Below are positions 1,676 to 62,046 of a DNA stretch of 64,000 bases, one piece after another. Position 1 is the first letter of the stretch. Each line of letters opens with the position of its first letter. Both the position numbers and the translations under genes were made by a program. Source of the stretch: Cyanidioschyzon merolae (taxonomy: Eukaryota); the NCBI GenBank assembly GCA_000091205.1, contig AP006483.2; one strand, 5' to 3'. The notes below the pieces were generated by a model. That model was given only the letters and a program-made list of their open reading frames with translations. It searched no databases and had not been told where the DNA came from.

Positions 1676-4027
1676 TATTCTGTAAAAGCGCAGAGGACTC
1701 GTAGGTTCGTGCCAACTTTAACACCAAACACAAAGCGAGTTTGAACAGCGCCTGATGAAATCGAGTCTCAAACACAATTCTCTGTGCACGAAGCCCGACG
1801 CTATTACGCCCCAGATTCGCTGCTCATATGCATACGAATAAGTATCTCTGTTTCTGGGAAAGGGCTTGTTATGGCAAAATATCTGAGGACAGCAAGAAAT
1901 CTCCTGCGCGAAACAACGTCACCAGGTGAGAATTATATGGTTGGCTGTTTCTTATATGAGAAGGAAGGCCTCGAAACTCTGTATACAGCGTGAAATATCA
2001 CCTCGGCCCGGACCTGAGAACCTCTGCGGCTTGGGTGCGAGGCAGGTCGTTTCACGCGCTAAGGAAGCGCGAGTGGGACGGTCATTACCATTCCAACCGG
2101 TTGAGCAAGCTGGCGCAAGCGCGCTGCTTGCCTCCCTACAGCCGAGGGCTTCGGCGATCCCAGCACGGTCTCATGTACTCCTGCCAGAGGTAGTGCGCAT
2201 ATGATCTTTGCTCGCTCACGTACGCTCTGGAGCGGGGCACAGGGCAGCTCATGGCGGGTGCGGGCAGCGATCTATCAGTCGGAGACCTCCGGTTCGACGG
2301 CTGGGAACCACTCGTCTTGAGACCCGCGAGCGTAAAATGGCGTTTGACAAGAGAGCACACGCTTTGTAGTGGATTGAACCAGAGGACAGCCTGGCACGCA
2401 GAGCAGCTCGACACCTGCCTCAACTGCGTACGGCTTGACCGCGTGTGATTGATGGCGACCGACGTTATCGAAGCGCTGAATAGAAGGATATGCGAAGGAG
2501 AAGTCAGTGAGCGTGCGTCGACGGAGGACGCAGTGTTGAGCGGTGCTGTACTTTTGGGAACGTGTAGGCGACCGCTGGATAACATCGTCGCTCGAGAAGG
2601 TGTTGTCGGAATGCTCGCGTGGCTCTTCTTTACGAACAGCTGTGTGCGCCTCCCTGAGTAGCCCTAGTCAGGTCTGCCAGTTCTCTAGAATAAGGTCGCA
2701 TCGAGCGAGACGAAGACGTATCCCTGCAGAGGTAAGCTTTCGCGCCTCACTGCGACGTCGATAGTGCAGCGTTCAGCGCGGGACGCTGGAGTCTAAGAGC
2801 GTGCTTTGCGCTTTGTCTACCCGCATCTCCTGCTCTCCGCTCGTGTGACGGGGTAGGGGATCTGCGCGCACTGGTGCCTCTCTGAGTGTACGATTCAGGA
2901 AACGTATGGAGTGGCTTTGATCCCCGTGGAGAGAATCTGCTAGGCAGAGAATGCTATGTTCTCTTTTGGATGTGCGCTGCTCAGGATGAAGGCTTCGACA
3001 CAGGTGGTTCATCGACCAGGTTAACGCGGATGTACTGACTCGTAGATTTCAAGGGGTTATTGTCTGGCGCGCCTCAGCGTAGGGGAAAGCGCCTTCTCGA
3101 CCTTCCCGCAGTCTACAGGAAACCTTCATATTGCAGATTACCTACGATAAACAACGGACAAAAGTAGAAAGGTAGAGTAGGTACAGGCTTTCCAGAATTT
3201 ACTGCTGTGGGCATAACGCCGGTTGGTGTCACGACATGCTGTACCGAGAACCTCAGTTGAGGAAGACGTTCCATCTCAATGTTTTCGGAACGCAAACGTG
3301 CATGGGGAAAAGCTCTATGAGTGTAGCTGCAACAAACCTCGGTGGGTACGCGCACATGCGCAAACTTCACATCTGAAGCAGTGCTGCACTTCGCACATGT
3401 ACACTGGGGAGAGCATCGGGAGACCTGGAATGACATTGCGTGCTCGTTTCTCATCTGGATGCAATAACTGACTTACTTGTGGTATCTGGCGGAAAGAAGC
3501 GAGCATTTTTCCCGCTCAGAAACGGCCTTTATCCGTTTAATATACAGTATGGGTTGCTGATCTTCGAATAAAGCGGAGTTGTGGAGCAAGCTGCATTGAT
3601 TCGCGGGATGGATAGAGCCTCGTCTGATCCAGCTGACAAGTAATGCATATTGTCTCGTTACCGTGCACAACCTGCAATGATGTTCTCTGCTCTGCATGGC
3701 GGATATTTCCATCCTTAGAGGGAACGTTCTCAGCGGATGGCATTGTTTGATATGTCACAAAAGATGGAATACGGGCACAGTTCTTAGTGTTGCAGCCGGA
3801 ACTCGCAACCCTGCCTGCTGACGGTAGCCGGCTCAGACGGTGGGGTCGTAGAGTCAATTTTGCGTTAGGCCCTTTCGCGGTGCAAGCCTCTGATATGCTT
3901 TCATATATTCAACGTTGACGTGGTTCATGGCGAGACTCAGGCACCCTACTCATTCGGAAAACTCTGCATCATAAAAGCTGTTTAGTGCATTTCGTGCAAA
4001 CGAGGCGTCTCTTCCGTCTTATAAAGG

Positions 4028-5143
4028 ATGAAAGGGAAGGAAGAAGGAAAAATTGAGGCGCTGCAGTTCTGGACGAAGGTGCTCGAGCGAGGCCAGTTTC
4101 ACCTTTTTGAGTTTGACTGGAGAAGCAGTTCGACGACTGGTTGCTATTCAGCTCTTACTTATGGACTCGTTCGGCATTTTGCCACCTACCTGTGCACCGA
4201 GCACGCAGCACTCGCGGAGAAAGGCTTTCCTGCAGCAGGTTCGAGCGCGTCGTGCTCCCCGCCGACGCCGGGTGACGCCCGGCTCATCTTCTGGTGCGCT
4301 GACCAATGCGTAGAGTGTTTGGTACCACCCAAGATACGACGGCTTGCAAATGATAGACTTGTATTCACGAAGAGCGTCACCAGAGAGGACCTAAAGGACA
4401 CGGCGCACACCATATTGGTGCTGGTATCCCTGAGTCCAAACTTGTGCAGGCGATCGGAGTTCTTGGACTCGCTCCTGCTTCCGGCTTTACTGTTTGAGAA
4501 ACCACCACAGAACCTGACAATAGTGATGGCTATCCGACCTCTTGAATTTCATGGATGTATATGTGATAGCTTGCGATCGAATGCGACGAGCTGCTGGACT
4601 TTCATATCAAAGTCTTGTTTTGTTGGATGGACTCGGGTGCCGCTGCGTGGCCGATGCGTTCACTACGGTTTCGAATGTAGTACGGAGGGAGAGCATTTAT
4701 GGCGGCTGAGCGGGAAGCAGCTAAGCGTTGTCGAATGGGCCTCGCAGCTGGACACACTGCCCTGTCTGTATGACGCGCGCGGTGTGTTTTCCAAGGCATC
4801 CCCGGGGGCCAGATTGGAGCCATACGCTGCTACCGTCCACACTGAGCCGGTTGAAGTGAACTCGAACGCAAAGATGGGCAGTGTGGCCAATCTTCAACCA
4901 TCCACGGAAACGAAGGCAGAGCCGCTCGAGAGCTTCCTTACATCTTTGCCGTTCCGAGTTTCTCTTTCGGAGCGGGAGGAACGCTCGCGATCGCGCCTAA
5001 AACTGCCATTTGAGCATTTTGATGAGAGCACGGCAGATGCGATTATCAAAAGTCCTGAAGGTTTTGTAATTTTTGAAAATGCCGAAGCGGATGAGCCGGG
5101 TAGTGACCCCGAAATCTCAAGCGACGAGGATCTAGACGTTTGA
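4028..5143 (+). CDS. Hypothetical protein, 371 aa, acidic C-terminus (SSDEDLDV); no recognisable domain.
   Basis: Longest uninterrupted ORF in a 5 kb stretch, sited between unrelated genes. No motif I can assign. Confidence 0.3.
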   Translation: MKGKEEGKIEALQFWTKVLERGQFHLFEFDWRSSSTTGCYSALTYGLVRHFATYLCTEHAALAEKGFPAAGSSASCSPPTPGDARLIFWCADQCVECLVPPKIRRLANDRLVFTKSVTREDLKDTAHTILVLVSLSPNLCRRSEFLDSLLLPALLFEKPPQNLTIVMAIRPLEFHGCICDSLRSNATSCWTFISKSCFVGWTRVPLRGRCVHYGFECSTEGEHLWRLSGKQLSVVEWASQLDTLPCLYDARGVFSKASPGARLEPYAATVHTEPVEVNSNAKMGSVANLQPSTETKAEPLESFLTSLPFRVSLSEREERSRSRLKLPFEHFDESTADAIIKSPEGFVIFENAEADEPGSDPEISSDEDLDV

Positions 5144-8100
5144 CTGCAACTGGAAACTCGACATGCCCAGCACGATGAACCAATGTGAACGGGCTACCGC
5201 TGCCAAACGTCTCATGGATTCCGGGATGCATGCTTATCATGTTGCCTTTACGCTCGTTGTTCGAGTCGACAAATCAGCGTTTTCCAGACAACGCCCCGTA
5301 AAGTTGAACGCGGCGCCTGCATGTTTGCTTTGTGACAGGCATAAACATACTGGCTTGTCGCGTTTCCAGTCATAGAGCGTTCCATGCGTGAGAAGGATAG
5401 ATGCATACCGCTAGCGCTATCGTGCGCCATATATGGAAGGCTTTGAAACTTGTTTTCATGCGGGACAAGGGCCACAGTGGACAGGAAATCCGCTGTACCC
5501 ATTTTGGCGTACCTCTGCTGATGATCGTTCAATCATGCGGCACTGTTGTTGCTTGGCGCGTTGCGCTGGAATGGTTTGCAGCACTCTAAATGACTCTTTC
5601 AGAAGCCCGACGAAATACATCTGCAGATTGCGCAACACACATTGCTACGGACGCTCGCCCTTTCTGGATAAGGACAACACGTATATTCCTGGCTCTGAGC
5701 CCCCGGGACCCAGGAACGAGTAACAGCGCATTACCGTACCCGCTGTTCCCTGATCGCATGTGAGATTGAAATGGGATACTGGATTGCGCGCTTTGTTCTT
5801 GCCTTTCGATGTTTTCCGATTTTTCGATGTATAGCTTCGACGTTCGAAGTGCAGAATTAAAGGTCTACGGATTCGCTTGCAGTGTTTGGGTTTCTCGCTC
5901 GTCTTTTCGGTGTCGCTCCTTCGATTCTTTGCGTCAGGGATTCGATTCGCCACTGGAATCAGGATGATTCGCAGCGTCATTGAATAAAAGGTGCGTAAAG
6001 AATCGATGTCATTATCCAATTCACACGAGCAAGCCTCGCCGCTTCTCCATCCCTACGAGAATACTGCTAAAATCACGCATTCGTCAAGTTTTCAATCTTT
6101 ATGTCTCAGGCAACTGGTGGACGTAGCATTTCGCGCCACTGGATAGCCGACGAAAAATACTCGATGTCCGCTCTTGACGACTTCTTCGGACGCTCACGCC
6201 GAATGTTCGCTGATCTTCTCACGTCACATAATAGATTCCGTTCAATGCACGATTCATCATCTCTTTGGTACGAACGAGGAATCGGCATTCCACAGCCGCA
6301 CAATATCTCTCTTGAAATATGTTCCTAGAGTCTCGCATCTCTTCTGTTTGCAGGAGACTGGATCTTGGACTTTGGCTTCAGTCGTCGCTGAAATCATTTA
6401 TACTCTAAAGTACATTACTCCGCTGCACAAAGAGAATGTAGACGGATCAATGTTCCGCGCATTGTTCTCCATCCTGGATTTTCCTTTCGGTACTTGTTTC
6501 ATAATGCGCATCATCGCGTTCCACAAATCCTCTGTCGAATAGAACGTTGCAAACTTGCATGTCCAGCAGCCGGAATGCTCACTGAGAGCATCGCCTAGAA
6601 GATGCTCGTTTGCATAGGGAATGTCGCCGCTCGCGGGAACGACGAAGGGCGTCAATGAGGATCTTCAGTTCCCCTCGAAAGTGTGCACCGAGCAGTGATG
6701 TAAGCGTACACGCGCTACAGAGTAGCATTAGGAGAAGGAGGTGCAATGGAAGTATGAGAACGCTTTATCACAGCCAAAAGTCTTTGCCGTGAAGGACCCA
6801 GCGTGGATGTATTTGAAGAAGATGAAAATGGCTCGCGGAGCGTAGATTGCACTATTCGCCTGTGCATGGAATGTGTTGACAGCGGTCGGGAGCAGCGAAA
6901 TAGTGACTTTAACGCTTACATCAACATCCTTTGACCACAAAAAACGGAGATGGAGTTACAGGAGAGACCGGCAAGTTGAAAGCCAGATATAATAGACAAG
7001 GAACAGAAGTATTAGTAGAAAAAGCCGGCCAAATCTGGTGTCGATTACAAGATGAAGAGACCCAGACTTATGTAAATACGTACACGCTAGATGACTGGTT
7101 CTGCTCCTTTTGATTCTGAAAGGGGTATAGTTAGGGAGCTGCAATAGGCTGGCGATAGCTCTCGAGAATAGACTATTTGGACAAATTTGTAGATCAGAAT
7201 ATTTCACGCCTCAACATGTCTTCTGTGCTCAGTCGGCGCGCAGTCGACTTCTTGTAGCCCGAATATTGCCCAAGTTATCGTAATGCAGAATGATTCGACA
7301 AGTCGATCGGCAGCAGCTGCTGGCAAAGTCTGGTTGGTATCGAGCGCATTCGCTGGTATGCTCAGTGCCCTGTAGCTGAGACGACCTTCGCGTTAGCAGA
7401 AGAGTGGTAAGAAAGGTCCTCTTTTTATCCAATGTGCAGACTTTTGTGATCAGAATCCTAGTTTATCCATCGGAATGAGCATAAAATTGCGTTTCGGAGA
7501 TGCACCGCGTAGGCGCGTAGTTTGGAACGCAGACTACTGCCCACAAACCGATCCGAATACGACAATACTGCGGCAATCTCTGCCAGAAACGCTGCCGACA
7601 AAATTTATACATGGAATGGAAAGAGAACAGTACTGTATGGATCAACGAGCGCTTTCCAAAACCGTTTGGCGGCAAATATTAGAGAGCATTGTCGATGATA
7701 AATTGGCTCTTCTACAGCGTATGGTTGACGCTTCAGACCGGTAGATTTTGGCGACGAAGCACATCGTTCGCAATGACGACATCCCGTGAAGTGGTTCATT
7801 ATTATCTGACTCGATCGCATTATTGGCTGATGATCAGACATTCGCAGAGCACCTGGCAACCGTGCTCCGTACTTCAAAGGAAAAACTGCGGTGCGCTTTC
7901 GCTTTACGAATTTCAAAAGACGGCAATTTGCTCATGAATTCAGACACGTAGGCAGCGAATGCCAGGGAAGCTATTGAGCACCAGCGGTCGACCAGAGCGT
8001 CCATGGCTGTAAAGACTGGTGGGATGAGCGCACCATTTCGCTTGTGCAACGCTAAATTTGTGGTATGCTTGCCAGTTCGAGGACGACATTTAGCTGCTGA

Positions 8101-13809: not shown

Positions 13810-15377
13810 ATCAGGGAACAGGTAGCTCCATAGAGTCTTTCAACTTTTGTTTCTGTTCCAATCAGGTTGCGGTGTTTAGCAGGATATCTACATGACGATG
13901 CGATATACCGTATAGATCGTAGATGAATTCCACGTATGATATATACTTTTCTGATCAGTGCCAGCAGGACTGCATCCTTCCTTCGGGTCAGTCATGCCAC
14001 AGTGCTCAGATGGTTGAGGCACACTGATAGAAACAGGTACATGCGCTCCGTGCCGAAAACCGACATTCTCACAGTGTGTTTGCGGTCAATGGCAGAAAGC
14101 GACCCATCGTTCACGTTATGGAGGGTGAACGTGACAACAGTAGCCACCACGGGCGTCTCTGTTTCTCAACATCTTGTTCATGTTGCCCTGAAAACACTAG
14201 GATTCAGTTGCAAAGGAAATAACAAATTTCACGTACGGTCATCTTCTGTCAAAGTACCTACGACAGCGTTCATGGAACGTCGCAAGCGTTATGAGGCAAA
14301 GGACGTCGATTTGTTTTGTCATTCGATGAGGTTTGTTTCGGACGAAACGGTCGGAGCGTATGCGGGTATTCGTGGAGCGGCGCGCCCGTTCTTCGCACGA
14401 TCCAACTCGAGAAGAACGACGACATCTTTAGCTGTTCTAGGTGCAGTGGATTCATTTGGCGGCCTCGGATTCGCACGTAGTCAAGGCTTGTACAACAGCA
14501 TTCACTTTATCGAATCATTGAAGACTTCCTCGACGTCTGGTGACGTCCTTTGGATTAAGCAACATGGCATTGCACCATTTCTTTTTGCATTCATACTTTT
14601 GCCGATTCTGTCCGAGAAAAGCTGCATTTCATTCCTCCGTTCTATCTTTGTTTCAACCCAATCGAAGGAATGTTTTCTATCGTGAAGCGTAAGGATGGCT
14701 CCACTGGGCGAATCGCTGAAGCGTTCTGCAGACGGTGACACACTGGGAGCATATATCGTATTCCTTCGGCAAGTCTATCCTTTCCGGGAAAATCCTCCAC
14801 TAAGAACATAAAGAAGCGTGTTCATTTCAAGAATTAAAAAATCCAAGGAACAGGCATGCACGTGAAATTCGAGGATCCTGGAGGTCCGGTGTCGTTGGGT
14901 TCGAAAAAACGAAAACCTCCTCTTCTCGCCGACCGTCGAGCAAAGAAGAGAAATTTACGAGGAAGAAGAAGAGGGTACATAGGCGAGAAAAGCTATTTAA
15001 TTTACAGGATGATGACGAGACTCTAATGACACAGAGGGCTCGAGTCCTAGCAATCCTTGCAAAGGTGAGTCCACCAGATGCAATGCACGCTAGTAGTTCG
15101 CAAACTGCGACTTCTACGCCGCCGTCAACATTCGACAATATGCGGTGCTGAAGACGAGGCCCGAGAAGCTTTCGCGACGCGACTTTGTATGGCAGCCTCT
15201 CAGACTCGAAGTTTTCAGGGAGAAGCTGAAGCCGATAACAGGTGGCGGGCAAAAAAGGCTGGGAGGCGTCTGCGGCTCGGTATTATTTTACCCCACGGTC
15301 GCGGAACAGTCTCGCTCCTTTGAACTTTCTGCATGCGTATCTCTAGACGGGGTACACTTGCTCCCAGAGCACACGTT
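13810..15377 (+). mobile_element. Copy C of a ~1.5 kb TnpB/Fanzor-like (OMEGA-type RuvC nuclease) element; degenerate, with frameshifts and stops.
   Basis: Nucleotide homology over ~1.5 kb to reverse-complemented copy D (55193-56720). It is also homologous to the 3' parts of copies A and B. Its frames encode ...KFEDPGGPVSLGSKKRKPP... (RuvC-II-like) and ...DFYAAVNIRQYAVLKTRPEKL (RuvC-III DxNAAxNI at 15109-15135). Confidence 0.6.
13936..14685 (+). pseudogene. N-terminal reading frame (249 aa) of the TnpB-like protein of copy C. It includes a candidate degenerate RuvC-I (SGDVLWIKQHG).
   Basis: Its protein aligns with the D-copy ORF 55926-56375(-) (VSQHLVHVALK/VSQQLVHIVLK, ETVGAYAGIR/ETFGAYMGIR) and with A-copy ORF 63608-63877(-). 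It is interrupted by stops before the RuvC-II/III segment. Confidence 0.45.
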
Positions 15378-16772
15378 GATGACCTGGAAGCTGCCTATGG
15401 GCAACGTAAGGATGTGTGTCAGATGTGTGCGGGCAGTGTGGGGTATGGACCCGCCCCAGCTGCCCTGCAGGCGGTTTCAAGGCTTGAGGAACACCTAGGA
15501 GGTGGCTACGGTCCAGTCGCCGGTGAGTCCGCTTTATTGGCGAATCTTAGGGAAAAACTTTTCCTGCACAATGGGATAGACGTTGACGCACAGCGCGCAG
15601 CAGTTCTTGTAACTGCCGGTGCGAACCAGGCGTTTGTGAACGTGCTACTCGCGGTCGCCGATAGCGGCGACGCGGTTATTCTGTTTGCCCCCTACTACTT
15701 CTCACACTACTCGGCTGCATTATTTGCCGGCTTAAGACCGATAGTTCTGAACTCGAATTCCCACGAAAGCGTTGCCGGCGCTCTGCAATATTACTCCGAG
15801 AACTTGCTTCATTCTGAGGTGCCCAGCGTTGAAACGGTGCGAGCTGTGGTTGTTTGCACGCCCTGCAATCCTACAGGCAGCGTCTTAGATAACGCCGAGT
15901 TATGGAAGATTGCTCATATATGCGAAGCTCATGATTGGTGGTTAATCATAGATGAAGCTTATGAGCACTTCGATTTCGAGATGCAACTTTTGGAGCGGGA
16001 CGGAGAACTGACCCTGACCTCGATAGTGAGCCCGTCGTGTCTCACGGGGCTACCGCAGCGAATTCGTCGTCCGTACCTTATGCATAATCGGTCAATTCAT
16101 ATCTTTTCTATGTCGAAGTCATTCGGCATGGCGGGATACAGAGTGGGCTATATCCTTTGTCCGCAAACGGCCCCTATTCAAGATGGAGCGGATCTGTTCG
16201 ATGCACTCGTGCGGGTGAACGACACGATCGTGACCCATGCATCCCGCCAGAGCCAACTTCTGGCTCTCTGTGTGCTTCGGGATCCCGCCTGCATTAGCAC
16301 GCTCCAGTCCAGGCGACTAAGAGTGCTTCTTTACGTACGGGAGCTCTACCAGTTCGCTTTCAAGATGGTCAGAGCCGGACTGATCGAGCTCACACCATCG
16401 ATGATGGAGGTACTCAGAACATGCCAAAGAAACGGGCGCCCCTTTCGCATTGGCGCCTTTTACCTTTTCTGCCGTGCGTTACCGAAGAGGAATGGCTCCA
16501 CGCGTGTTGCTCGAGCTAGTGATCTCGAGTTGTGCCATTTTCTCGCAGATTCATATCGAGTGCTTGTTGCACCGGGGAGCATCTTTGGCACGGATGCGCG
16601 CGAATGTTGGATACGCGTTTCTGTCGGCGCTTGTTGTTGTAATGATATCCATGGTTTGCGAGATGCGCTTCGTCGTTTAGCAGCCGGTATCGCTGCGTTT
16701 CAAGAGCAGAAATTAGCGCGCAAGGTGAGTAGCGTCGATAACGACAACTTGGTGGTATCTACAACGTTTTGA
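15333..16772 (+). CDS. Class I/II pyridoxal-phosphate-dependent aminotransferase; substrate specificity not assignable.
   Basis: Fold-type I aminotransferase motifs: YGPVAGESALLANLRE, VLVTAGANQAF...GDAVILFAPYYFSH, CNPTGSV, IIDEAYEHF and SMSKSFGMAGYRVGYI (PLP-lysine SxSK motif). The first ~14 codons overlap the 3' end of element C, so the true start may be Met31 (about 15423). Confidence 0.8.
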   Translation: MRISRRGTLAPRAHVDDLEAAYGQRKDVCQMCAGSVGYGPAPAALQAVSRLEEHLGGGYGPVAGESALLANLREKLFLHNGIDVDAQRAAVLVTAGANQAFVNVLLAVADSGDAVILFAPYYFSHYSAALFAGLRPIVLNSNSHESVAGALQYYSENLLHSEVPSVETVRAVVVCTPCNPTGSVLDNAELWKIAHICEAHDWWLIIDEAYEHFDFEMQLLERDGELTLTSIVSPSCLTGLPQRIRRPYLMHNRSIHIFSMSKSFGMAGYRVGYILCPQTAPIQDGADLFDALVRVNDTIVTHASRQSQLLALCVLRDPACISTLQSRRLRVLLYVRELYQFAFKMVRAGLIELTPSMMEVLRTCQRNGRPFRIGAFYLFCRALPKRNGSTRVARASDLELCHFLADSYRVLVAPGSIFGTDARECWIRVSVGACCCNDIHGLRDALRRLAAGIAAFQEQKLARKVSSVDNDNLVVSTTF

Positions 16773-17856
16773 TCGTGTCTGCTGCTAAGACCCGTAGCGG
16801 TAAAGATCTGGTCAAGAGCATGATCGCACAAGACAAGCCTCGCATGACCAATATCCGACTGCGGCTACTCGATCGAAAGAGCAGTAAATAAGCACATTTC
16901 TGAAAAAAAAGCACAGAATGCGCGGGCTCGACGCGAAACCGAGTTAGACGGCAGTGTAACTCGGGACGCAGCCTAATTTACTTCCAAGGTATAGTGCGTA
17001 CGCTTTCAGCCATGATTATTCCGGAGCAAAAATGAAGCATGTGAAATGCGCACAAGCTGAGGCAGCCGCTCTGTTGGCTAAGCGCTTCCAAGCTATCTAG
17101 CTTCGCACAAGATCTGGAATTTTTCTCCATTAAGGCTCGCCTTAGCTCTATGCTCGAGTCTTGTAGCAAGAACTCTGCGCTTCGGACATAGAACGAGCTG
17201 ACGAAACAAACACAACCTGTTGGCATTCAGAACTGAAATGCAAGACACATGTACTCGCTTTGTTCCTGCCTCGAGATTTGCACGGCCTTGCTTTAAATAA
17301 AAAAGCTCGACTTCCGCAAGAAGTAATATGATCTTACGGACACTTATATTGTTTTAAGATTCCGGATGTCTTTTTTGAGTAGCTCTCTTGGCGCTTTTCC
17401 GCTGGAAGTGTAACGTCAATGGAATCAATACCGTTCGCGACGATCTCGGACAAAAAACGTCTATCAAGCAACCGATGTCAATATTCATTGCATACGTACA
17501 AGCACCAAGTTCTCTCGTTTCATTACTTGGAGCATGCTCAATCCAAGCATGCTTGAGGTTTTCGACTTTCTGCATGGGTGGAACTCTTCGGGAACAGCAA
17601 TGCGCGCTGCTGGATTGACAACGAACATAACCCGACGTCATCCCTTGCCGATTTCTGCACACGCCCATGCCAAAAGTTCACTTAATTTGTCATATCATAT
17701 CATAGGTTCCGTTTGAAAGACGAATCCTCCTCTCTCTGTCTATAGAAGCAATAGAATTTGACTTCGGCAGCAGGGTTCCTCCCGTGGGATATGCTTCCAG
17801 TCGCTCTCGTCTCTGTTCTTTGCATTTTCAAGTGCCTTGAAGTCGGACGTGAGTCA

Positions 17857-18498
17857 TTACGGGCATCGTTTCCAGTGGACATGCGTCACCGCCTTGTACG
17901 AAGGAAGCGCGGAAGACTCGAAATATCTCGATTTGTCTCGGGCGTGGATTCTCCTTCTACTATTTGTTTCATGATGGAAGAAATCGCGTTCTAGAAATCC
18001 TCTGTCAAATGCGACAACGTGCGCTCGCATGTGCGGAGGATGGAGTAATGGCTTGGAGATGGTGAAAAAACAAACGCGTGATTGTAGCATATGGCATCGA
18101 GCGCAGAGACGGAGAAGAGCATCGGCGGGGAGAGTTCTGTATTGGTCAAGTGTATGTACCTGGCAATGAAACAAGCGCTGACGCATCACAGGGCAGTTCG
18201 CAACGGACGTGTGATGCACCTGCGGGAGCCCATGACCGAAGTTAAGTGTCAACGTTGCAAACGGGGCAACAAGTCTGTACACGAACAAGATGAAAATGAC
18301 GAGCGATGTGTATATCGCGGCTTCCGCCCGGGCACAAAACGCATCGACAACAGCCTGAAGCCGCAAAAGTGGGACTTGGGCGCTGTTATCAACATCATTC
18401 GAGTGGAGACAACGGAGCTGGAGTGGCAGGAGAGGCCGGCGTGTTGAAAGCGAGACAAAATTGAAAGGAAAAGAGAGCAGCAAGAGAAAAGCTGGCAC
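17857..18498 (-). CDS. P-family small-ORF locus, copy P2. Paralogous to P1 (27127-27495) and P3 (49105-49528). No ATG at the conserved start position (GTG instead), so it may be a pseudogene.
   Basis: Conserved block ...LQLRCLHSNDVDNSAQV...ARAEAAIYTSLVIFILFVYRLVAPF...HHTSV is shared with P1 and P3 at protein level and at nucleotide level (~65-70 % identity). The 5' flank is also shared. Confidence 0.25.
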   Translation of the reverse strand: MPAFLLLLSFPFNFVSLSTRRPLLPLQLRCLHSNDVDNSAQVPLLRLQAVVDAFCARAEAAIYTSLVIFILFVYRLVAPFATLTLNFGHGLPQVHHTSVANCPVMRQRLFHCQVHTLDQYRTLPADALLRLCARCHMLQSRVCFFTISKPLLHPPHMRAHVVAFDRGFLERDFFHHETNSRRRIHARDKSRYFESSALPSYKAVTHVHWKRCP

Positions 18499-18499
18499 G

Positions 18500-19060
18500 C
18501 GCTAGTTTTCATGATAGTGAGAATCAAACCAAAAATTCAGAGGGTCCACCGGAATCAATAACTGGACCCCCTCAACTTAATTCTGATATGGGTGCGTTTT
18601 CGTTTAGTTCAAAGAGTGCTTGGCCCCAATCGCTTCGGCCTCGTCGCTCGCACAGCGTGAAGTCGCGAAACATGAAAGCGTTTCCCCCTTTTTTCATGAC
18701 AGTTGGAACCAGACCAAAAAATCTAGAGTGTCCACCGGAATCAATAACTGGACCCCCTCAACTTAATTCTGATATGGGTGCGTTTTCGTTTAGTTCAAAG
18801 AGTGCTTGGCCCAAACGCTTCGGCCTCGTCGCTCGCACAGCGTTAAGTCGCGAAACATAAACGCGTTTCCCCCTTTTTTCATGACAGTGGGAACCAGACC
18901 AAAAAATCTAGAGTGTCCATCGGAATCAATAACTGGACCCTCTCGAATTAATTCTGATATGGGTGCGTTTTCGCTTAGTTCAAAGAGTGCTTAGCCCCAA
19001 ATGCATCAGCTTCGTCGCTCGCACAGCGTGATGACGCGCATTACATTCGGGCTTGCTCAT
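18500..19060. repeat. Tandem array of three units, ~184-186 bp each.
   Basis: The 20-mer ccaccggaatcaataactgg recurs at ~18546, 18732 and 18916 (third copy ccatcgg...). Units are ~90 % identical. The first unit is continuous with the 5' flank of P2. Confidence 0.85.
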
Positions 19061-27126: not shown

Positions 27127-27495
27127 CATGCCTTTGCGGGTTTTTTTCTTAAACAGCTTCCTTAGCTTTTCTTCTATCCGGATTTCAATACATTGGTCGA
27201 TAAACTCTCTCCAGCTCCGTTGTCATCAGTTGAAGGATGTTGATGGCAGTGCACAAGTTGCGATTTCGGCGATGACATGTGGCATCAACGCAGCTCATGC
27301 ACAGGCGGAATTTGCGATTGACGCTTCGCTAACCATTTCCATCTCCTTCGTAAATAGAGACTGTGTGTCCTTTGCAGAAGTGATGCTTGGCGGCGGTCAG
27401 GCGTTCGCAAACATCCACGACACTTCCTCCTCTGAGCGCAGGCCTGTGACACGTCAGGGCTTGCTTCATCATTCGGTACACGCCATTGTTGGTTA
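27127..27495 (+). CDS. P-family small ORF, copy P1 (~122 aa from ATG). Hydrophobic N-terminus, Cys-containing.
   Basis: MPLRVFFLNSFLSFSSIRISIHWSINSLQLRCHQLKDVDGSAQV...AQAEFAIDASLTISISFVNRDCVSF...HDTSSSE aligns position-for-position with P2 and P3. Confidence 0.3.
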
Positions 27496-29626
27496 GAGAG
27501 GGTTCTCGTCGACGCTTTCCTCCGTTCTCGCGCCCAGTATGTACCCTACGTTCAGAGGCGACTCCGCAGGCGACTACATTGTCCGCTGGACACTGAATCG
27601 CATGCTGTTCTATTCAGTGCACCATCGTCCGCGTCCTAGCACACTCGTCGTTTTCTGCGCACCCTTACCAAAAAATACCTCCGTTAGTGTGACCGGCATC
27701 AAGGCACCTTTCAAACTCGTGAGCATTTTTTGTAGCATGTTTCACTCAATGGCAAGAGTGCGTACAGGACTTTTGGGACGCTCTTGTCTTGCGTTCGCAT
27801 GCTCGTCATACAATTCTTTCAAATGTCTCCTTTCGATGGGATGAAGATGACGAGCGTGCGAGAGCAGCATACGAGTGCAGCTGGAAGCCGCAGGGTCCGA
27901 GACTCGTTCTCCACAGCGCCGTCGGCTGCCACAGGGTGGTCGGACTTTACTTCGGATCTCACTGAAGCAAACGGGTACACGTTCACTCTCGCTGGGTCCA
28001 GGCAGATGCAGATCGCACGGGGAAGCAAGTTCGCGAGAGCGTGGATCTGTTTTGATCCTCGTTCATCTTCGTATTTCCCCTTCCGAGCAGATTTGCGTTT
28101 GAGCTCTGAGATCGTCGTGAATCGTGTACGACGTTCGTGGTTGACGACGGTGAATACTGTCGTGCCATCGATGCCGATGGAGAAGAGTATGCCTCGCCTC
28201 CGTCGTGTGAACATCTCCTTCCTTCTTTTTTTTCCTTCTCATTCGCATATTTGTTTGTGTTGCACCGCTTTTCGTTCCTCTCGCGGTGCATGAACGCCTC
28301 CGAATCTCCAGGCGAAAGGAGCATATTTCCCTTCATGAACCTCATGGACAGAATCGGTCCAAATCGTTCTCGATGGATTTCGTTCTGTCCATCGTACGTT
28401 TCTGGGCGGCCTTGTTCGTGGGCATCCTCCATACCGAAACAAAAAAGGCGTGAATCGAAGCGCAGGTGCGAACGATAGATACATGCGTTCGGAAAAGGAG
28501 ATAATCTCATCCGATCTGGCACAATGAGACTGCACTAAAGATGCAGAAGCAGCATCGCGTCCGGAGGCCGGTTCCTAGCAGGCTGCAGAACCAACCTCTT
28601 CTTGTCGTCTCCGACCTCAATAAATATTCGACGTTCGCGCATCAAGCTCTCTATTCTCCGTGTCGATGGATGTCTGTGAAGAACCGGTCATGAAGAGATC
28701 TTTCGAGTTACCAAGGCTGGTGATCGAGTGGTCGAACTTTCGCCTCCACGTCATCGAGTCGTTCATGCATCGGTGAAGATGAACGCTCACATGGCTCAGC
28801 GTCGCCACTATTTTTTTTGACCACGCACTTTTTTGTGAAATCAAAGCCGGTTTGACTCACCAAGCGAGTAAGGGCCTCGACGACCGCAAGATCGCTCCGC
28901 TAGGGAATCGAGTACGCCTGGCGTCGATGAAAGCACTGAAACCAGGAACTGTAACCGGTAAATGCTCGAGAACACTGGGGACACGACAGGCCGCCTATGT
29001 CAACAGCGCCTGTATGAAGATCCCCTCTTTCGGACTGTAGTCGACGCGTTCGAAGCACGCGTTCTGTTTCGTGAGGTGAGCGCGTTGCTGGAGTGTAGAG
29101 AAAAGAACTGCGAATTCACCTACGCGGGCGCGATGTCTCGGCTATTGAAAGTACGTTCCGATGTATCCCATTTGCGGCTGCTCTGTTATAGATCAGCGAT
29201 GAGCGCAGCTTCTCGTCCGGAAGCATACCAAATTGATGAGCTTCGTCCAGGAAAGCACAACGTCGGAGATTAACGGCATTCTCGGGGAGCAGTACACGCC
29301 TCTATTCGTGGTACCAGGATTTGTATGTTGCTCTTATGCTGTTGAATTTCCTGCCAGACCGGGTGGGCAGGGGATGTTTGCCTCTTTAAGTAAACATGCT
29401 ACATATATTCATTCTTTCTGCCTTGTTCATATCTCCTCCTCATGGCTCTTTTGCAATCCACCTTCGGCAAAAGGAAACGAATTGCGCAAATTAAGCGCTG
29501 ACGAGTTATCAACAGATGTATTTGATGTACTGAATCATTCCTTCACGTGTCCGGAGCCATTATCGATCGGGTTGAAACGCGGGAAATGTGCTGGAATGCA
29601 CAAAACGAGTCATCCTCTATACTCTG

Positions 29627-30442
29627 CTCGTTTCGGAGCAGAAGCGGTTCATGGCACGGCATAGTGTCCCTGATGAAGCAAGGACCAGTAGAAAAATCCA
29701 TGCTAGAGAAATACGCCGAGGAACTGCGATCCGTCTACGCTCCCATCGTGCACACCTCCGGTGATGAACGCTCAGATCCAGGCGATCGCTGCAATGACTC
29801 GACGCCGTGTCCGGTACCTGTTGTCATGCAAGCGGAAGAGACGAGAGCGTCTGGGACCACATTCCTGTCAGAGATAAAATGCTGCAGCCGATTTTTGTTT
29901 CGACGATGCGAACCAAGGGTCGATGATGCGCCACTCAAACGAAATCCATTACCTGATGTGAAACGTTCAGCCAAGCTCCCGCGTGAGGTCTTGAGAGAGT
30001 CGTCAGCGTACGAGGTTGAGTTTTTTCCATCGTCAATGTACCGCCGCGAATTGCTGCGCGTTCCCAAGCTACACTGGCATGGAACGATCGAGAGCTTGAA
30101 GCATGCGTGACAAGCGCATGCTACACGTAAGGAAAGCAGGGGGATGGAGGCTTCCATGAATGAATTTTGACACTGGTATCGGCTATTTTACGAACGCGTG
30201 TTCCAGGGCGCCGCGGAACATCTCGATTCGCATGACTTATCGATTACCAGCCGCATAGCGTCGAAGAATCCACCTCGACAAGACGACAGGGAACCCTAAA
30301 ACTGCCTATGAATCCGTGCGCCGTTTCTGCTGCATTTCGAATGTGGATGCTGTATATCTGGAAAAGCTCGGGAAACAAAGTGCAAGGCAGGAGCCAGGCG
30401 CACATCAACGTCCCATTTTAACCTGACATCGGTGCAGATTGC
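29627..30442 (+). repeat. Direct repeat, copy 1 (816 bp), immediately 3' of RPS2.
   Basis: ~99 % identical to 32350-33162, at a constant offset of ~2720-2723 bp. It carries identical ORFs on both strands (29547-30110 + / 29735-30157 -, versus 32387-32833 + / 32458-32880 -). Confidence 0.9.
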
Positions 30443-32295: not shown

Positions 32296-33162
32296 TTCTG
32301 GAACGGGATAGTGTCCCTGATGAAGCAAGAACCAGTAGAAAAATCCATGCTCGTTTCGGAGCAGAAGCGGTTCACGGCACGGCATCGTGTCCCTGATGAA
32401 GCAAGGACCAGTAGAAAAATCCATGCTAGAGAAATACGCCGAGGAACTGCGATCCGTCTACGCTCCCATCGTGCACACCTCCGGTGATGAACGCTCAGAT
32501 CCAGGCGATCGCTGCAATGACTCGACGCCGTGTCCGGTACCTGTTGTCATGCAAGCGGAAGAGACGAGAGCGTCTGGGACCACATTCCTGTCAGAGATAA
32601 AATGCTGCAGCCGATTTTTGTTTCGACGATGCGAACCAAGGGTCGATGATGCGCCACTCAAACGAAATCCATTACCTGATGTGAAACGTTCAGCCAAGCT
32701 CCCGCGTGAGGTCTTGAGAGAGTCGTCAGCGTACGAGGTTGAGTTTTTTCCATCGTCAATGCACCGCCGCGAATTGCTGCGCGTTCCCAAGCTACACTGG
32801 CATGGAACGATCGAGAGCTTGAAGCATGCGTGACAAGCGCATGCTACACGTAAGGAAAGCAGGGGGATGGAGGCTTCCATGAATGAATTTTGACACTGGT
32901 ATCGGCTATTTTACGAACGCGTGTTCCAGGGCGCCGCGGAACATCTCGATTCGCATGACTTATCGATTACCAGCCGCATAGCGTCGAAGAATCCACCTCG
33001 ACAAGAAGACAGAGAACCCTAAAACTGCCTATGAATCCGTGAGCCGTTTCTGCTGCATTTCGAATGTGGATGCTGTATATCTGGAAAAGCTCGGGAAACA
33101 AAGTGCAAGGCAGGAGCCAGGCGCACATCAACGTCCCGTTTTAACCTGACATCGGTGTTGCG
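32296..33162 (+). repeat. Direct repeat, copy 2 (867 bp), ~830 bp 5' of RPS2. It contains an extra ~55-80 bp internal tandem duplication at its left end (32296-32349 versus 32350-32440).
   Basis: See copy 1. The extra unit duplicates ggatagtgtccctgatgaagcaag(a/g)accagtagaaaaatccatgct. Confidence 0.9.
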
Positions 33163-33559: not shown

Positions 33560-34195
33560 ATCAAATGCTTTTTCGTGGTTTATAGCGGATGCTTGCAAAG
33601 TATGTTCATACGCAAAAAATCCAAGGGAGAGGTATATAGTAAAAAAGGCGAGGTACCTGGAGCCTAGGTGTTGCCGCGGTAGACAGAAAACCGAAACGAA
33701 ATCCTCTTCCCGCCGACCGTCCAGCGAAGAAGAGCAAGTGACGAAGAAGCAGAAGAAGGGAGGAAATGGTCAAGAACAGGTAGTTGCCCGACGTGATGAT
33801 GACGAGACAGTAGGGGCACAAAGGGCAGGAATTCGAGGAGTCCTTGCAAAGGTGAGAACAACGAAAGCCAGTATACGCATGGAATTCGTGAACCGAGACT
33901 TCAACGATGCCACCAATACCAGATGATATGTGATACTGGAGGCGAGGCCCGCGCAGCTGACGAGCGCCAATTTTGTCGGGTAGCATCCCAGACCCGAGGT
34001 ATACAACCTGAGGTTGAAACCGATAGCAGGGGTCAGGCCGCAGAAGGCTGCGAGGCGTCCGCGGGTCGATGTATACAGGCACTCCACGACAGCGAAGCGT
34101 TTTCGTGCGAACGAGCATTTCGATCGAACGTTGGCCGAACATCGCGAGACCCGTTGTTCTGTCAGAAAGCTGGCATCCTGCGTTGGACACGAGCG
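33560..34195 (+). mobile_element. Copy B: 5'-truncated (~640 bp) 3' fragment of the TnpB/Fanzor-like element.
   Basis: Aligns with the RuvC-II to 3'-end portion of copies A, C and D. ORF 33450-33926 ends ...VVARRDDDETVGAQRAGIRGVLAKVRTTKASIRMEFVNRDFNDATNTR* (degenerate RuvC-III at 33894-33920). The 3'-terminal blocks gggtcgatgtatacag and gaagcgttttcg are shared with D. Confidence 0.5.
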
Positions 34196-39405: not shown

Positions 39406-40221
39406 TCAAATACGCCGGGCACAGCAGCACGCGGCCGCCGTCGTCAACGATCGCCGCGCACCGTTGGGTGCAGGTCGGACTTCGAACTGCTCCGGAGAGC
39501 GGATCGCACGCGGGCGCGAACGGCTGTCAAGCATTGTCCTATTTGATACAGGATGGTACAGATCGCAGCGGCATCAAAGACGCTACGGAGCGATCGTCGG
39601 TGAGAGCGGTTTGGCGACTGCTCTGCAACGCCAGCGTACGCTTCGTCATTGCCAGATGCGCGCCATGCCGTCGGATGTCGACGCCATGGCGCGATCTCGA
39701 GGGCCGTACGTGAGCGCGGTGCGCGGTTTATCTCGATGAGTGCAGTGAAGACGTTCATCGCTTGAGGATTGGTACCGTGTTGACTCTGGACGGCGAGCGT
39801 ATTGCCCAGTCAGTCCGTCTCCACTGACGGAGTGTAAACATCGAAAATTTTTCGTGTTTCGAGATCAATGCATCGAACCTGATTCCCTTGTATGTGCGAT
39901 TGCGTTAGGCAGTCAGGAAGTGACGACCGTGCTTTTCCAAACGTCTTAAAGTACCACCATGAGCCTTGCACCAGAATTCCAGGTGTGAATAGCAGTTCGC
40001 TGAAAGCAGCGATGCTCTTGGAGCCACTTCTCGGATTCATGTTCGCTATCACGGCGGGTGTGCGGCCCCGGCCGCCACAGAGACGCAGCAAGCCCTTTCA
40101 TTGTCCTAACAGGCGTCGGCTCGATGAAGCATTGAACATTTGGAGCGAGACAGCTGAGGCTCTGCTCTTTCGACCTGTCGGAATCAATACAATGAAAAGA
40201 GGCGACTCGCTGAGCATGTCC

Positions 40222-40490
40222 ACGGTTGCTCCTCGGGTTTCCATTTTTTCGATATCTGCGCCGCCTGATCGGCATCCGAGTCTTCTGCTGCGCTTTTACT
40301 TTGCTCGCATGCGCTGGGGCGACATCTTACCACTGCCGCTCAAAAAGGGTTCTCCCACGGTTGCTCCTCGGGTTTCCATTTTTTCGATATCTGCACCGCC
40401 TGATCGGCATCCGAGTCTTCTGATGCGCTTTCACTTTGTTTGCGTGCGCTGAGGCGACACCTTACCAATGCCGCTCAAAAAGGGGCCTCG
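40222..40490. repeat. Tandem duplication, 2 units of ~136 bp, ~95 % identical.
   Basis: cacggttgctcctcgggtttccattttttcgatatctgc(g/a)ccgcctgatcggcatccgagtcttctg... is repeated at 40222 and 40358. Confidence 0.85.
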
Positions 40491-49104: not shown

Positions 49105-49528
49105 AATCATCACCATGAACCTGTGGAGGTATCTCCTGAGACCGATTACCTTTCCGCTCTCTTATCTCTGGCTTGAAATACGTCGGTTTCTCCTTAGACT
49201 CATGCATCATTCATTGCAACGGAAGGCTGATTGCAGCGCGAACCTCCTGATTTCGCCGCTTCAAACAGACGGTGATGCGTCTCATGCTAGGGCAAAAATT
49301 GCGATCTACGCATCACTTTCCATCTCCATCTTCTCTGTATACAGCTTCTGTACGCCCTTCGCAGCAGCAGCACTAGAATGCAGTGCATTGTTCCAGTGTG
49401 CCGACTACATCTCGTCGTCCGCGCACCAACCTCTCTCGCGTGAACGCTTTTCTCGTTGCTCGCTACATGCCCTTGACAGTTGCAGAAGGATAACATTGAT
49501 ACTCGCATTCGCTTCGACTCCGGTGTGA
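49105..49528 (+). CDS. P-family small ORF, copy P3 (~140 aa from ATG).
   Basis: MNLWRYLLRPITFPLSYLWLEIRRFLLRLMHHSLQRKADCSANLL...ARAKIAIYASLSISIFSVYSFCTPF... aligns with P1 and P2. The conserved 5' flank (actcgggcgt...catcaccatgaacc) matches the P1 flank. Confidence 0.3.
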
Positions 49529-49843
49529 TACCTGAATAACATATGGTTTCTCTGAACGTTCGCCTTGGCGAGTACGCTATCCGCTTCGCGCGCAGGCCTT
49601 CGGTGTTCCATTCGATCAAGGATTTGCGCAACGCGATGCTTCTTACGATGACCCAGGTACCGCGAGCAACATCCAGGCTGTAAACCAAGCGACCCAGTTT
49701 TGGTCTATCTGCGGCCACTTCGTCCGAAGCGGTAATGCACGCTCCACGAGCAGTGATTACTACGATGACGAAAGTCCAAGTCCGAGACCCCATTCCACGG
49801 AAACAGGAAAATGGGTCTCTCCGGGACCATCTCTCGAGAGGGG

Positions 49844-49997
49844 TATCACGCTGCTGTTGAATGCCGTTTCGTCGATACACACCAAGGGCGGATCTTGTAG
49901 CTTTCGAACAGAACAGATTATATCACGCTGCTGTTGAATGCCGTTTCGTCGATACACACCAAGGGCGGATCTTGTAGCTTTCGAACAGAACAGATTA
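49844..49997. repeat. Perfect tandem duplication, 2 x 77 bp.
   Basis: tatcacgctgctgttgaatgccgtttcgtcgatacacaccaagggcggatcttgtagctttcgaacagaacagattat occurs twice with no mismatch. Confidence 0.9.
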
Positions 49998-55213: not shown

Positions 55214-56720
55214 CAGAACGCCTGAGGAAGCTGCGCACTGCGCGGAGCGCGCGTTTCAAATTCCCGGGTGCGACGCAGTACGCAAGAAGCGAAAACGCTT
55301 CTCTTCTGTGTATATCGACCCGCAGATACATTCCCGTCTCCCTGGACCGACCCTTTGCTATCGGTTTCATCTTCTCCGTGTCCATTTCAGGCCTGAGAGG
55401 CTGCACCACAAAATTAAGATCGCCTCAGGTCCTCGGGTCTCGGCCTCAGCACCACATATCTTCTTATATGGATAGCAGCGGTAAAGTCTCGGTTCACGAA
55501 CGCCGTGTGTTTATTGCCGCGGCCGCTTGAACTGGCAAGTGCAAGGAGTCCCGGAACGCATGCTTTCAGTCCCATTTGCTGTTCGGTTGGCTCTCTGCGC
55601 GTTTCTAGTGCCGGAGCACTCCGCTGACTTTTCTCCATCTCGATCGTCTGAAGTGCACTCGCTGGATCATCCCTTGGTTGTTTTACTTTTGAAAATGAAA
55701 GCAGTTATTGATGCCCCTAGCTTGAGACCTATTCGGAAGGGGAATCACTTGTGCAGGGAAGAGGATACATGCCCCGGTGTGTCGTCGTGTGCTGAACGCT
55801 TCAGCGATTCACTCAGTGGAGCGATCACTCCGAATCAGGACTGAAAGCACCCCTTCGATGTCGCTGGACCGCCGAGCGTATGGAGGAGTGATAAGCAGCC
55901 CAAATCCGATAAAAGTCGCAAAAGCTCAAAGGCGAAGGCAATGGTGAAATACCACGTTGTCTAATAGAGGGGCGTCGCGAGACGTCAGGCGGAAAGTCTT
56001 CAACGATTTGGCAAATTGGGTGCTGTTGTGTTTGCCCTCCCTGCCAACTAAACTGAGGCGGTCAAATGAAGCTACTGCAGTTCGACTAGATGAGGATACC
56101 TTCGTTCTCTTCGAGTTCCATCGCACATACCACAGGCGCCCTGCTTCGCGAATACCCATATACGCTCCGAATGTTTCGCCCGGGGGAAGTCTCAACAGCT
56201 GAAAAAGAAAAGAAACCGACGTCCCTGTGCCTTTAACCGATCGCGACGTTCCAGGAAGGCTGTCGCCGTGATTTCGGTTGAAGATGGCTATGCTTGAACT
56301 AGGACTGTTTATGCGACAATATCCCTGTGGTTTGAGGACTATATGAACAAGCTGTTGAGAAACAGAGGTGCACACTCTGGCTGCGATCGTCGCTTTTTGC
56401 TTTCCGTACGTTGATCAACTAGTCGTTCTCTACCATTGACCGCAAGCAGTCTTTGACAATACCAGTTTCGCCGCAGAGCGCATATCCTTGTTACTTTCAG
56501 AGTCCCTCAAGCATCGGAGTAACGTGGTATGTCGTATCTGCAATCGGAATGCAGTCCTCCTTGCACTGTCCAGTACAGAATATATCCTGCAGGCAATTCT
56601 TCTACGATCTATGCTATACAGCGCATCGTGATTTTCATCTCCAGCTATTCACCACAGCGGAGGAAGTGAAACCGAATTGACTTACAGACTGAAACGGCGA
56701 TCTAGGATCCCTAGCAGCTC
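55193..56720 (-). mobile_element. Copy D of the TnpB/Fanzor-like element (~1.53 kb); degenerate.
   Basis: Reverse complement aligns along its length with copy C. ORF 55414-55638(-) ends ...FVNRDFTAAIHIRRYVVLRPRPEDL (RuvC-III at 55454-55480). ORF 55926-56375(-) is the N-terminal homolog of 13936-14685. Confidence 0.6.
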
Positions 56721-61908: not shown

Positions 61909-62046
61909 CGAATTCTACTGCTTTTACAGTTATTGACGATGCTGTACTCCACATCGGCGTGGTACCTCTCACAGGGACGAATTCTACTGCTTTTCCAGTT
62001 ATTGACGATGCTGTACTCCACATCAGCGTGGTACCTCTCACAGGAT
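61909..62046. repeat. Tandem duplication, 2 x 69 bp (~96 % identical). In-frame within ORF 61722-62597(+).
   Basis: cgaattctactgctttt(a/c)cagttattgacgatgctgtactccacatc(g/a)gcgtggtacctctcacagg occurs twice. Confidence 0.85.

Follow-up and report, generated by a model that had tools for sequence, protein, structure and literature searches.

Does the 3' end of a decayed repeat in Cyanidioschyzon merolae preserve the relic of a guide RNA, or only that of a gene? The repeat lies in a stretch of 64,000 nucleotides (nt) of contig AP006483.2 (assembly GCA_000091205.1), here called the window, whose positions serve as coordinates throughout. The interval under study, 15109-15377, covers the 3' end of the repeat copy denoted C. 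An initial annotation had taken this copy and three others (A, B and D) for relics of Fanzor genes, and had read short exact blocks shared by their 3' ends as a candidate scaffold of a Fanzor guide RNA (omegaRNA, also called fRNA). Here we report that the interval represents the worn 3' terminus of a Fanzor gene with an internal deletion, apparently borne by a Tc1/mariner-type transposon.

In Fanzor1 systems the omegaRNA sits between the end of the open reading frame (ORF) and the right end of the element (Saito 2023, PMC10432273; Jiang 2023, PMC10530073), and the initial annotation's premise on where a Fanzor scaffold is located agrees with these two studies. The SpuFz1 scaffold measures 75 nt and has two stems, the GtFz1 omegaRNA overlaps 17 codons of its gene, and 'ghost' loci of Spizellomyces punctatus hold the RNA without the gene (Saito 2023, PMC10432273). 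Conservation of the fRNA extends into the ORF in ApmFNuc (Jiang 2023, PMC10530073), and Fanzor1 genes within autonomous Mariner/Tc1 transposons were described by Bao and Jurka (2013, as cited in PMC10530073).

Results

Copy C is a decayed Fanzor stub behind a transposase relic

Self-comparison of the window, which has a eukaryotic look with its sparse long ORFs and 47-59% G+C, demonstrated one repeat in four copies: C (14813-15326, plus strand), B (33614-34109, plus), D (55271-55520, minus) and A (62708-63251, minus). The four related copies seen in the initial annotation are real, at about 68% identity (68-70% pairwise; mean of a four-way MAFFT alignment, 66%). An RDxNAAxNI-type motif is present in the translation of each; copy A keeps an open frame of 177 amino acids (aa), and the frames of B, C and D are broken by stops or frameshifts. 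Homology between copies C and D extends over another ~980 nt upstream (C 13868-14848 vs D 55672-56656).

Read along the plus strand, copy C opens with a transposase relic (13868-14830), a decayed helix-turn-helix (HTH) and DDE_3 ORF of IS630/Tc1-mariner-like type that ends ...KKRVHFKN before its stop. This part is homologous to D 55672-56656 (67.8% nt identity; also by tblastx), and the motifs LDNxxxH and PPxxxxxNPIE are legible in its translation. The internally deleted Fanzor ORF follows, and its portion 5' of RuvC-III (14856-15105) contains the start codon (MHVKFEDPGGP) and a lysine- and arginine-rich (K/R-rich) stretch. At the deletion junction (about 15020-15040) the N-terminal part is joined to ...RARVLAILAKVS. 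The RuvC-III relic CDFYAAVNI (15106-15132, from translation; family consensus RDFNAAINI) comes next, a motif that a profile of intact relatives aligns with SpuFz1 and GtFz1, followed by the relic codons of a conserved C-terminal tail, AVLKTRPEKLSRRDFVWQPLRLEVFREKLKPITGGGQKR (15133-15258). The sequence from 15106 to ~15300 can be assigned with confidence to a pseudogenised Fanzor1 3' end of ~65 codons, namely RuvC-III plus this tail.

Alignments placed the block ctgggaggcgtctgcgg, common to the alpha and beta lineages described below, at 15259-15275 of copy C. Beyond it, single-sequence RNAfold predicts a small stem ggta/tacc (15279-15293), the beta-type counterpart of the first stem-loop. A decayed hairpin, gcgg aacagtc tcgc (15301-15315), lies at the position of the hairpin denoted H2 in other copies and ranks 33/43 in the cognate-arm comparison given below. 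The last bases with detectable homology to any family member are 15316-15326: an nhmmer match extends to 15322, and blastn against other beta copies reaches anchor +213/+220, that is, 15319-15326. About 65 nt, from ~15259 to 15326, are solidly identified as a relic terminal module that overlaps the last codons and reaches the right end.

The ATG at 15333 opens a 479-aa Aminotran_1_2 gene (ORF 15333-16772; Pfam E 7.5e-41; domain from residue 27). Positions 15333-15377 are therefore outside the element: they supply the opening 15 codons of this host gene for an aminotransferase, and the last 45 nt of the interval are host coding sequence. Copy C ends at most 10 nt 5' of this ATG, in the same orientation (15322-15333), and copy D stops ~58 nt short of an ORF at 50942-55213 (minus strand), also in the same orientation (55213-55271). 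Homology to other family members stops at ~15322-15326 in C, ~34109 in B, ~55271 in D and ~62708 in A; the right ends first assigned had been set too far out, by roughly 30-90 nt in B, D and A. For the 269-nt interval that had been proposed as scaffold, only ~15259-15326 could be a scaffold relic and the remainder is not.

The window copies belong to a gutted lineage

A degenerate-pattern scan of metagenome contigs yielded 330 relatives, all from a handful of Joint Genome Institute (JGI) metagenomes, and 80 loci were fetched. De-duplication at 95% left 43 distinct 3' ends, which form two lineages, alpha and beta, with the window copies A-D in beta. Sister strains carry A, D and B at orthologous positions, 97-100% identical (L002-L009 and L014-L016, with A represented by L002-L009), and the ORF of copy A had only four database relatives. 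Alpha elements are well preserved, measure about 2.7-3.2 kb and give a consensus protein of ~707 aa; their left end is fuzzy, subgroups extending by different amounts.

Only residues ~590-705 of the 707-aa alpha consensus were found in the window by protein comparison. In blastn against the alpha consensus, C 14814-14975 matches nt 383-534, and A and B match nt ~346-590, which include the start codon and the K/R-rich N-terminus, and then jump to nt ~2463-2576. As these alignments read, the beta Fanzor carries one internal deletion of about 1.9 kb, with WED, REC, RuvC-I and RuvC-II gone, and about 45 N-terminal and 115 C-terminal codons are left in the stub. No complete RuvC triad (RuvC-I D, RuvC-II E, RuvC-III D) was found in A-D, where RuvC-III alone is left (RDFNAAINI in A, CDFYAAVNI in C). 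With the triad incomplete and consensus residues ~45-590 deleted, A-D are nuclease-dead relics; all beta copies examined are pseudogenes.

A decayed HTH and DDE ORF lies directly upstream of the stub in C, in D and in beta copies of at least eight other locus groups. The Pfam DDE_3 match of copy D is weak (E 0.011; 16.1 bits vs a cut-off of 28.6), and Pfam searches of six-frame translations of C, B and A returned no match. In the distant relative L088 a clear DDE_3 gene (E 7.7e-17) stands immediately upstream of a full-length Fanzor1 gene, and together with C, D and the many loci that hold a DDE_3-like ORF upstream it places this Fanzor family in a eukaryotic transposon. The upstream region of C and D had also been considered as a lost Fanzor N-terminus, which was rejected, the region being a DDE_3-type transposase. 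In six beta copies a search between the left region and the right one gave no consistent terminal inverted repeats (TIRs), a weak negative, as the copies are decayed and their left ends undefined.

Intact relatives are Fanzor1 proteins

The assignment of the window copies to Fanzor was borne out by profile and fold searches of their relatives. A profile of 18 homologues (A3) matches SpuFz1 (8gkh, E 8.6e-15) and GtFz1 (9cer, E 4.7e-7), and the window copies tie to the family through their C-terminal 115 aa, at 45-60% identity. An intact database homologue, P0005, has 752 aa, and relatives reach down to 24% identity. The AlphaFold2 (AF2) model of P0005 has a predicted local distance difference test score (pLDDT) of 76.4, and its only strong Foldseek matches in the Protein Data Bank (PDB) are SpuFz, PpFz and GtFz (E 1e-15 to 5e-13; template modelling (TM) score 0.48-0.69). 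Another protein, P0064, scores above the Pfam cut-off for Cas12f1-like TNB. A single-sequence phmmer search of the L070 protein against PDB and a Pfam search of the same protein found nothing; only the profile and fold searches worked.

Just before RuvC-I, alpha Fanzor genes contain tandem repeats of 75 nt (25 aa), variable in number and of the type DPATQEVQDNDFVVD..K.EE.KEA. These were seen in L070 (1300-1680), L017 (6910-7290) and L049 (2996-3375), and AF2 shows residues 376-471 as disordered.

The 3' regions of distant (L086-L088) and intermediate (L089, L090) homologues were either unalignable to the terminal module or belonged to decayed alpha-type copies. L086-L088, Fanzor1 homologues at 39-42% identity, have common 3' noncoding motifs of their own, CCATCTATATAT and GGGTATAC, 130-290 nt past the stop (L086 ~2280-2400, L087 ~3380-3500, L088 ~3500-3650), which may be the right-end or omegaRNA signature of these three. 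A GTAYAC core in the motifs resembles the TGTACAC linker of the alpha module.

Shared blocks are mainly former codons

Five exact blocks had been quoted as a sign of RNA-level constraint, and three are exact as described. CAGCCTCTCAG occurs in C (15193-15203), A (62848-62858, minus) and D (55393-55403, minus), GGAGAAGCTGAA in C (15219-15230) and A (62821-62832, minus), and GAAGCGTTTTCG in B (34094-34105) and D (55290-55301, minus). The two others did not hold: GGGTCGAT.TATACAG is exact in B only (34063-34078), D having gggtcgatatacacag, and the four-way terminal motif tg.t.cc..cag.gcac has zero matches in the window and exists only in a gapped alignment.

Within the tail relic of copy C, 15193-15203 holds QPLR and 15219-15230 EKLK; cagcctctcag encodes the former and ggagaagctgaa the latter. 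The reading frame of the C-terminal tail is kept across the 43 distinct copies, and even homologues at 24-43% identity retain the tail motif RP..L.R..F.GQ.L, which aligns with the SpuFz1 C-terminus. Counting nt from the R of RDFNAA, the ratio of diversity at third codon positions to that at first and second positions was 3.8 at 0-29, 1.1-1.3 at 30-89, 2.3 at 90-119, 1.8 at 120-149 and 1.25 at 150-179, and fell to ~1.0 beyond 180. This codon periodicity to about +150 nt indicates that protein constraint in active ancestors explains copy C up to roughly 15260.

The length of the blocks was compared with 3000 simulations of four 260-nt copies under uniform decay to 68% pairwise identity. An exact match of at least 12 nt in two copies arose in 98% of them, and one of at least 11 nt in three copies in 41%, so that exact 11-12-mers among four 68%-identical copies are uninformative on constraint. 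The step from block conservation to RNA-level constraint therefore fails, since the A/C/D blocks are in-frame tail codons and the block lengths are expected by chance. Judging from the coding pattern, the conserved blocks appear to owe their origin chiefly to constraint on the protein while the ancestors were active, with common descent contributing.

A terminal module in the better-preserved relatives

Codon periodicity is absent from GGGAGGCGTCTGC (C 15259-15275) onward. The intact alpha protein runs about 64 residues beyond the R of RDFNAA, ending ...INIRRCAVLEKRPPELTRENFIGQPLKVELYEKKLEAVVGGRSKKTGRRLHVSWRRFV at its stop, and alpha homology continues about 60 nt further, with a sharp end at anchor +250 to +270. 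In the family homology persists 60-110 nt past the stop codon and then ends sharply, as it would at any transposon end.

Three stems, S1, H2 and H3, were predicted repeatedly when the better-preserved alpha modules were folded as single sequences. In the predicted S1, GGGGAGGCGTCT pairs with AGACGTTTCGTC, that is, the GRRL codons with the RRFV codons; the predicted H2, uAGGGCGGG-uca-CUCGCCaCUA, encloses the stop codon; and the predicted H3 is a terminal hairpin of 10-12 base pairs (bp) after a TGTACAC linker. Four unrelated stems were found for H2 (GGCGGG/CTCGCC, GCGAAA/TTTCGC, AGAAGCG/CGCTTCT and GTGGGAC/GTTCCAC), and H3 exists in two versions with shifted partners, CGTCGTTCGA/TCGAACGGCG and AACGTTTTTC/GAAAGGCGTT. 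In alpha the ctgggaggcgtctgcgg block supplies the 5' arm of S1 as well as the first bases of two solo modules that have no ORF (L017 1057-1159 and L049 694-799), both of which start exactly there. In beta copies the shared features are limited to the block, a stem that varies, an H2-like hairpin and ...CCACTGA, and an H3 equivalent was not recognised in them, the window's copies included.

Three kinds of test bear on this architecture. Against dinucleotide shuffles the module had a mean z of -1.0 over the 43 copies, compared with -0.18 for upstream coding sequence and -0.40 for the flank (Wilcoxon p = 0.001 and 0.035); 12/43 copies lay below -2, all of them alpha, with -3.5 as the lowest. Cognate arms out-paired swapped arms for H2 (p = 0.008, 43 copies) and for H3 (p = 0.003, alpha). 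Finally, the sense fold was 8.1 kcal/mol stabler than the antisense fold (23/24 copies), vs 2.0 for coding sequence and 0.2 for the flank, and contained many G-U pairs. The thermodynamic, arm-swap and strand-asymmetry tests together give moderate support to a structured module in the better-preserved relatives, at the very position where the initial annotation had expected one.

A number of results weigh against a structured RNA. Covariation analysis, named at the outset as the way to check the scaffold, was negative or uninformative throughout: RNAalifold on MAFFT alignments gave 5 invariant pairs (-1.9 kcal/mol) for alpha and no consensus for beta, and a column-wise count over 24 alpha modules gave 76.0% paired vs 76.0% in shuffled alignments, with covariation at 0.111 vs 0.120. 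The RNAalifold failure is due in part to subfamily stems that sit in different registers, the two H3 versions differing in their partners and H2 in its loop sizes. The arm-swap test was not significant for S1 (p = 0.08) or for H2 in alpha only (p = 0.2), single H2 hairpins beat mononucleotide shuffles in just 6/43 copies, and the permutation p-values are optimistic, since the copies are kin by descent. Composition explains part of the sense-strand bias, the module being G+T-rich. The alpha module is at least as diverse (0.29-0.36) as the third codon positions upstream (0.18-0.31), and its diversity hence offers no direct evidence that purifying selection acts on it. None of the window copies folds significantly (z -0.15 for A, +0.99 for B, -1.10 for D and -1.52 for the remaining copy, C). 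A gathering-threshold scan with Rfam 15 of the window, L070, L017, L026 and L088 returned no relevant match, and Rfam may hold no Fanzor omegaRNA model.

A possible relic guide-RNA module and its alternatives

By position and architecture the alpha module resembles a Fanzor1 omegaRNA locus, and we regard it as a candidate omegaRNA. In an intact alpha element, which encodes a Fanzor1 of ~750 aa, a sense transcript running through the end of the ORF would fold into S1, H2 and H3. These ~105 nt would serve as the scaffold, and the guide would be taken from the flank. The candidate RNA would begin near GGGAGGCGUCUGC or farther upstream. Beta elements and the ORF-less solo modules would then be 'ghost' omegaRNA loci, usable only with a Fanzor supplied in trans, and the module in the window would be a fossil. 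We favour this mechanism, combined with the anatomy of copy C, as the best explanation of the locus, and hold it with moderate confidence. For the scaffold proposed in the initial annotation this means partial support: the proposal would be right in kind and location for the family, though the blocks cited for it are not its evidence.

The strongest competitor gives the module no RNA role at all: the coding part would be kept by protein constraint and descent, the tail would be a DNA-level right end bound by the DDE_3 transposase, and the hairpins would be incidental or act in DNA. The beta end is paired with a transposase gene, so that recognition sequences must reside there, and solo modules could be truncated ends or miniature inverted-repeat transposable element (MITE)-like derivatives. 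Chance and coding account for the blocks, the formal covariation tests are null and module diversity does not fall under the synonymous-site level, all of which suits this explanation. Tc1/mariner transposases, however, normally recognise TIRs rather than hairpins, and six beta copies gave no TIR matching the right end. The G-U-rich stems, far weaker in antisense, fit RNA better than duplex or cruciform DNA, the cognate-arm tests are positive for H2 and H3, and characterised Fanzor and TnpB systems all place the omegaRNA at this position. We consider a purely DNA-level end possible but unlikely.

An extension of the guide-RNA model would see in beta a division of labour, in which the nuclease was discarded and the guide-RNA module kept, with an alpha Fanzor recruited in trans. 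Such recruitment would help the beta elements, which encode a transposase, to be retained or to home; the short, overlapping ORF ends would have been kept along with the module. The repeated tail-to-tail and tail-to-head junctions of Fanzor 3' ends (62708/62717 in the window; L010; L022, L017 and L049) would result from right-end-directed, possibly RNA-guided, targeting and not from chance nesting. We think this a doubtful and rather speculative extension.

The module could also be a 3' untranslated region (UTR) element of the Fanzor or transposase message, concerned with 3'-end formation, stability or translation control and not with a scaffold. A sense-strand-specific fold that overlaps the stop codon, at the 3' end of the transcription unit, is what such an element would look like, but solo copies exist without an ORF, the module is kept in a deletion derivative whose ORF is non-functional, and no precedent was found in the Fanzor studies consulted; we therefore judge a UTR element improbable. 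That the module is a chance similarity of decaying repeats, with nothing functional beyond the former ORF, is very improbable: the quoted blocks are expected in simulation and the window copies are thermodynamically ordinary, but dozens of independent insertions keep about 60-110 nt of homology past the stop with a sharp common boundary, and alpha modules reach z values down to -3.5.

Other copies and features of the window

Copy B (33614-34109, plus) is 5'-truncated and has in-frame stops, with RuvC-III at 33894-33920, the conserved block at 34048-34064 and H2, cgaagcgttttcg, at 34093-34105 (cognate-arm rank 9/43). Copy D, taken with its DDE_3-like transposase relic (55672-56656), spans 55271-56656 on the minus strand; RuvC-III lies at 55465-55491 and the block at 55320-55337, and its H2, agaagcg-tttt-cgcttct (55285-55302), folds at -10.6 kcal/mol and ranks 1/43 by cognate arms. 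In copy A (62708-63251, minus) the remnant ORF of 177 aa occupies 62628-63161, RuvC-III 62919-62945, the block 62775-62790 and H2, gcgaaacgtttcgc, 62731-62744 (rank 3/43). One source labels the ORF 62628-63161 (minus; P0001) an 'adenine-specific DNA glycosylase', a label that is unsupported, as the ORF is a fused N- and C-terminal Fanzor stub.

Two further stretches, 2094-2198 (minus) and 63907-63999 (plus), match a central part of the alpha Fanzor consensus (residues ~491-527; E 5e-6 and 0.004) and are probably further Fanzor fragments. The window self-comparison also detected decayed TnpB/Fanzor-like 3' ends of a second family, unrelated to the first, in which a zinc-finger-like CxxC is followed by RNxDFNAxINI, with five copies at ~66-73% identity: 6275-7007 (plus), 17768-18474 (plus), 27209-27432 (minus), 49222-49874 (minus) and 62024-62717 (plus).

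The 3' end of copy A meets the last of these tail to tail, A (minus) ending at 62708 and the second-family relic (plus) at ~62717. Another tail-to-tail junction was seen in L010 (~4340-4440), where a beta copy (plus) stands at the GGCGTT terminus of an alpha copy (minus). A frequent arrangement is tail to head, with an alpha element immediately behind the 3' module of a different copy (L022 ~615-900, L017, L049 and L068), and two of these upstream modules are the solo modules of L017 and L049. In L068 (1004-1138) an alpha element sits inside a beta tail and interrupts it at the GGRS codons.

Just upstream of copy B lies a 99%-identical direct duplication of 810 bp (29625-30434 and 32348-33157). 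Tandem repeats occur at 18439-18994, 40220-40489, 49844-49997 and 61907-62044, with units of 185, 135, 77 and 69 nt.

Discussion

Comparison with characterised systems places the repeat in a known kind of element. As with SpuFz1, GtFz1, CrFNuc and ApmFNuc, the protein is a Fanzor1 by profile and fold, and the candidate RNA, like a Fanzor1 omegaRNA, is on the sense strand, extends from the ORF 3' end to the right end, overlaps the last codons (~14 here, 17 in GtFz1) and consists of a few stems plus a linker, with flanks that diverge immediately after. Whereas SpuFz1 has two stems in 75 nt, three stems are predicted here over ~105 nt, and the module has no sequence similarity to Rfam entries. 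The window copies further differ from Fanzor1 systems in being decayed and without a nuclease.

A 3' module without a functional Fanzor, as in the solo L017 and L049 copies and the gutted beta copies, recalls the S. punctatus ghosts. Those ghosts, however, measure ~550 nt, are flanked by inverted repeats and have no transposase, whereas the carrier described here encodes a DDE_3-type transposase and keeps both ends of the Fanzor ORF; the activity of the S. punctatus ghosts was assayed with SpuFz1. As in Mariner/Tc1-borne Fanzor1, a DDE_3 gene (L088) or DDE_3-like ORF (C and D of the window) is directly upstream of Fanzor and in the same orientation, but the window Fanzor is an internal-deletion stub and no TIRs were found in six beta copies. 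The TnpB omegaRNA of IS200/IS605 elements (ISDra2) offers a further parallel, its scaffold overlapping the nuclease ORF 3' end and the right end and its guide coming from the flank. ISDra2, though, is prokaryotic, with a TnpA (HUH) transposase and subterminal DNA hairpins, whereas the present element is eukaryotic and DDE_3-linked, with a much smaller ORF overlap.

For the window the outcome is mainly corrective: its copies are dead, internally deleted stubs, the blocks ascribed to RNA-level constraint are for the most part old codons, and part of the interval belongs to a host gene. If the module is an omegaRNA, the family would be a Fanzor1 family of high copy number that is so far uncharacterised, represented at least 330 times in a few metagenomes, with intact members of ~750 aa, a compact candidate scaffold of ~105 nt and natural ghost copies, and it would provide material for comparing the co-evolution of Fanzor1, its guide RNA and a DDE transposase.

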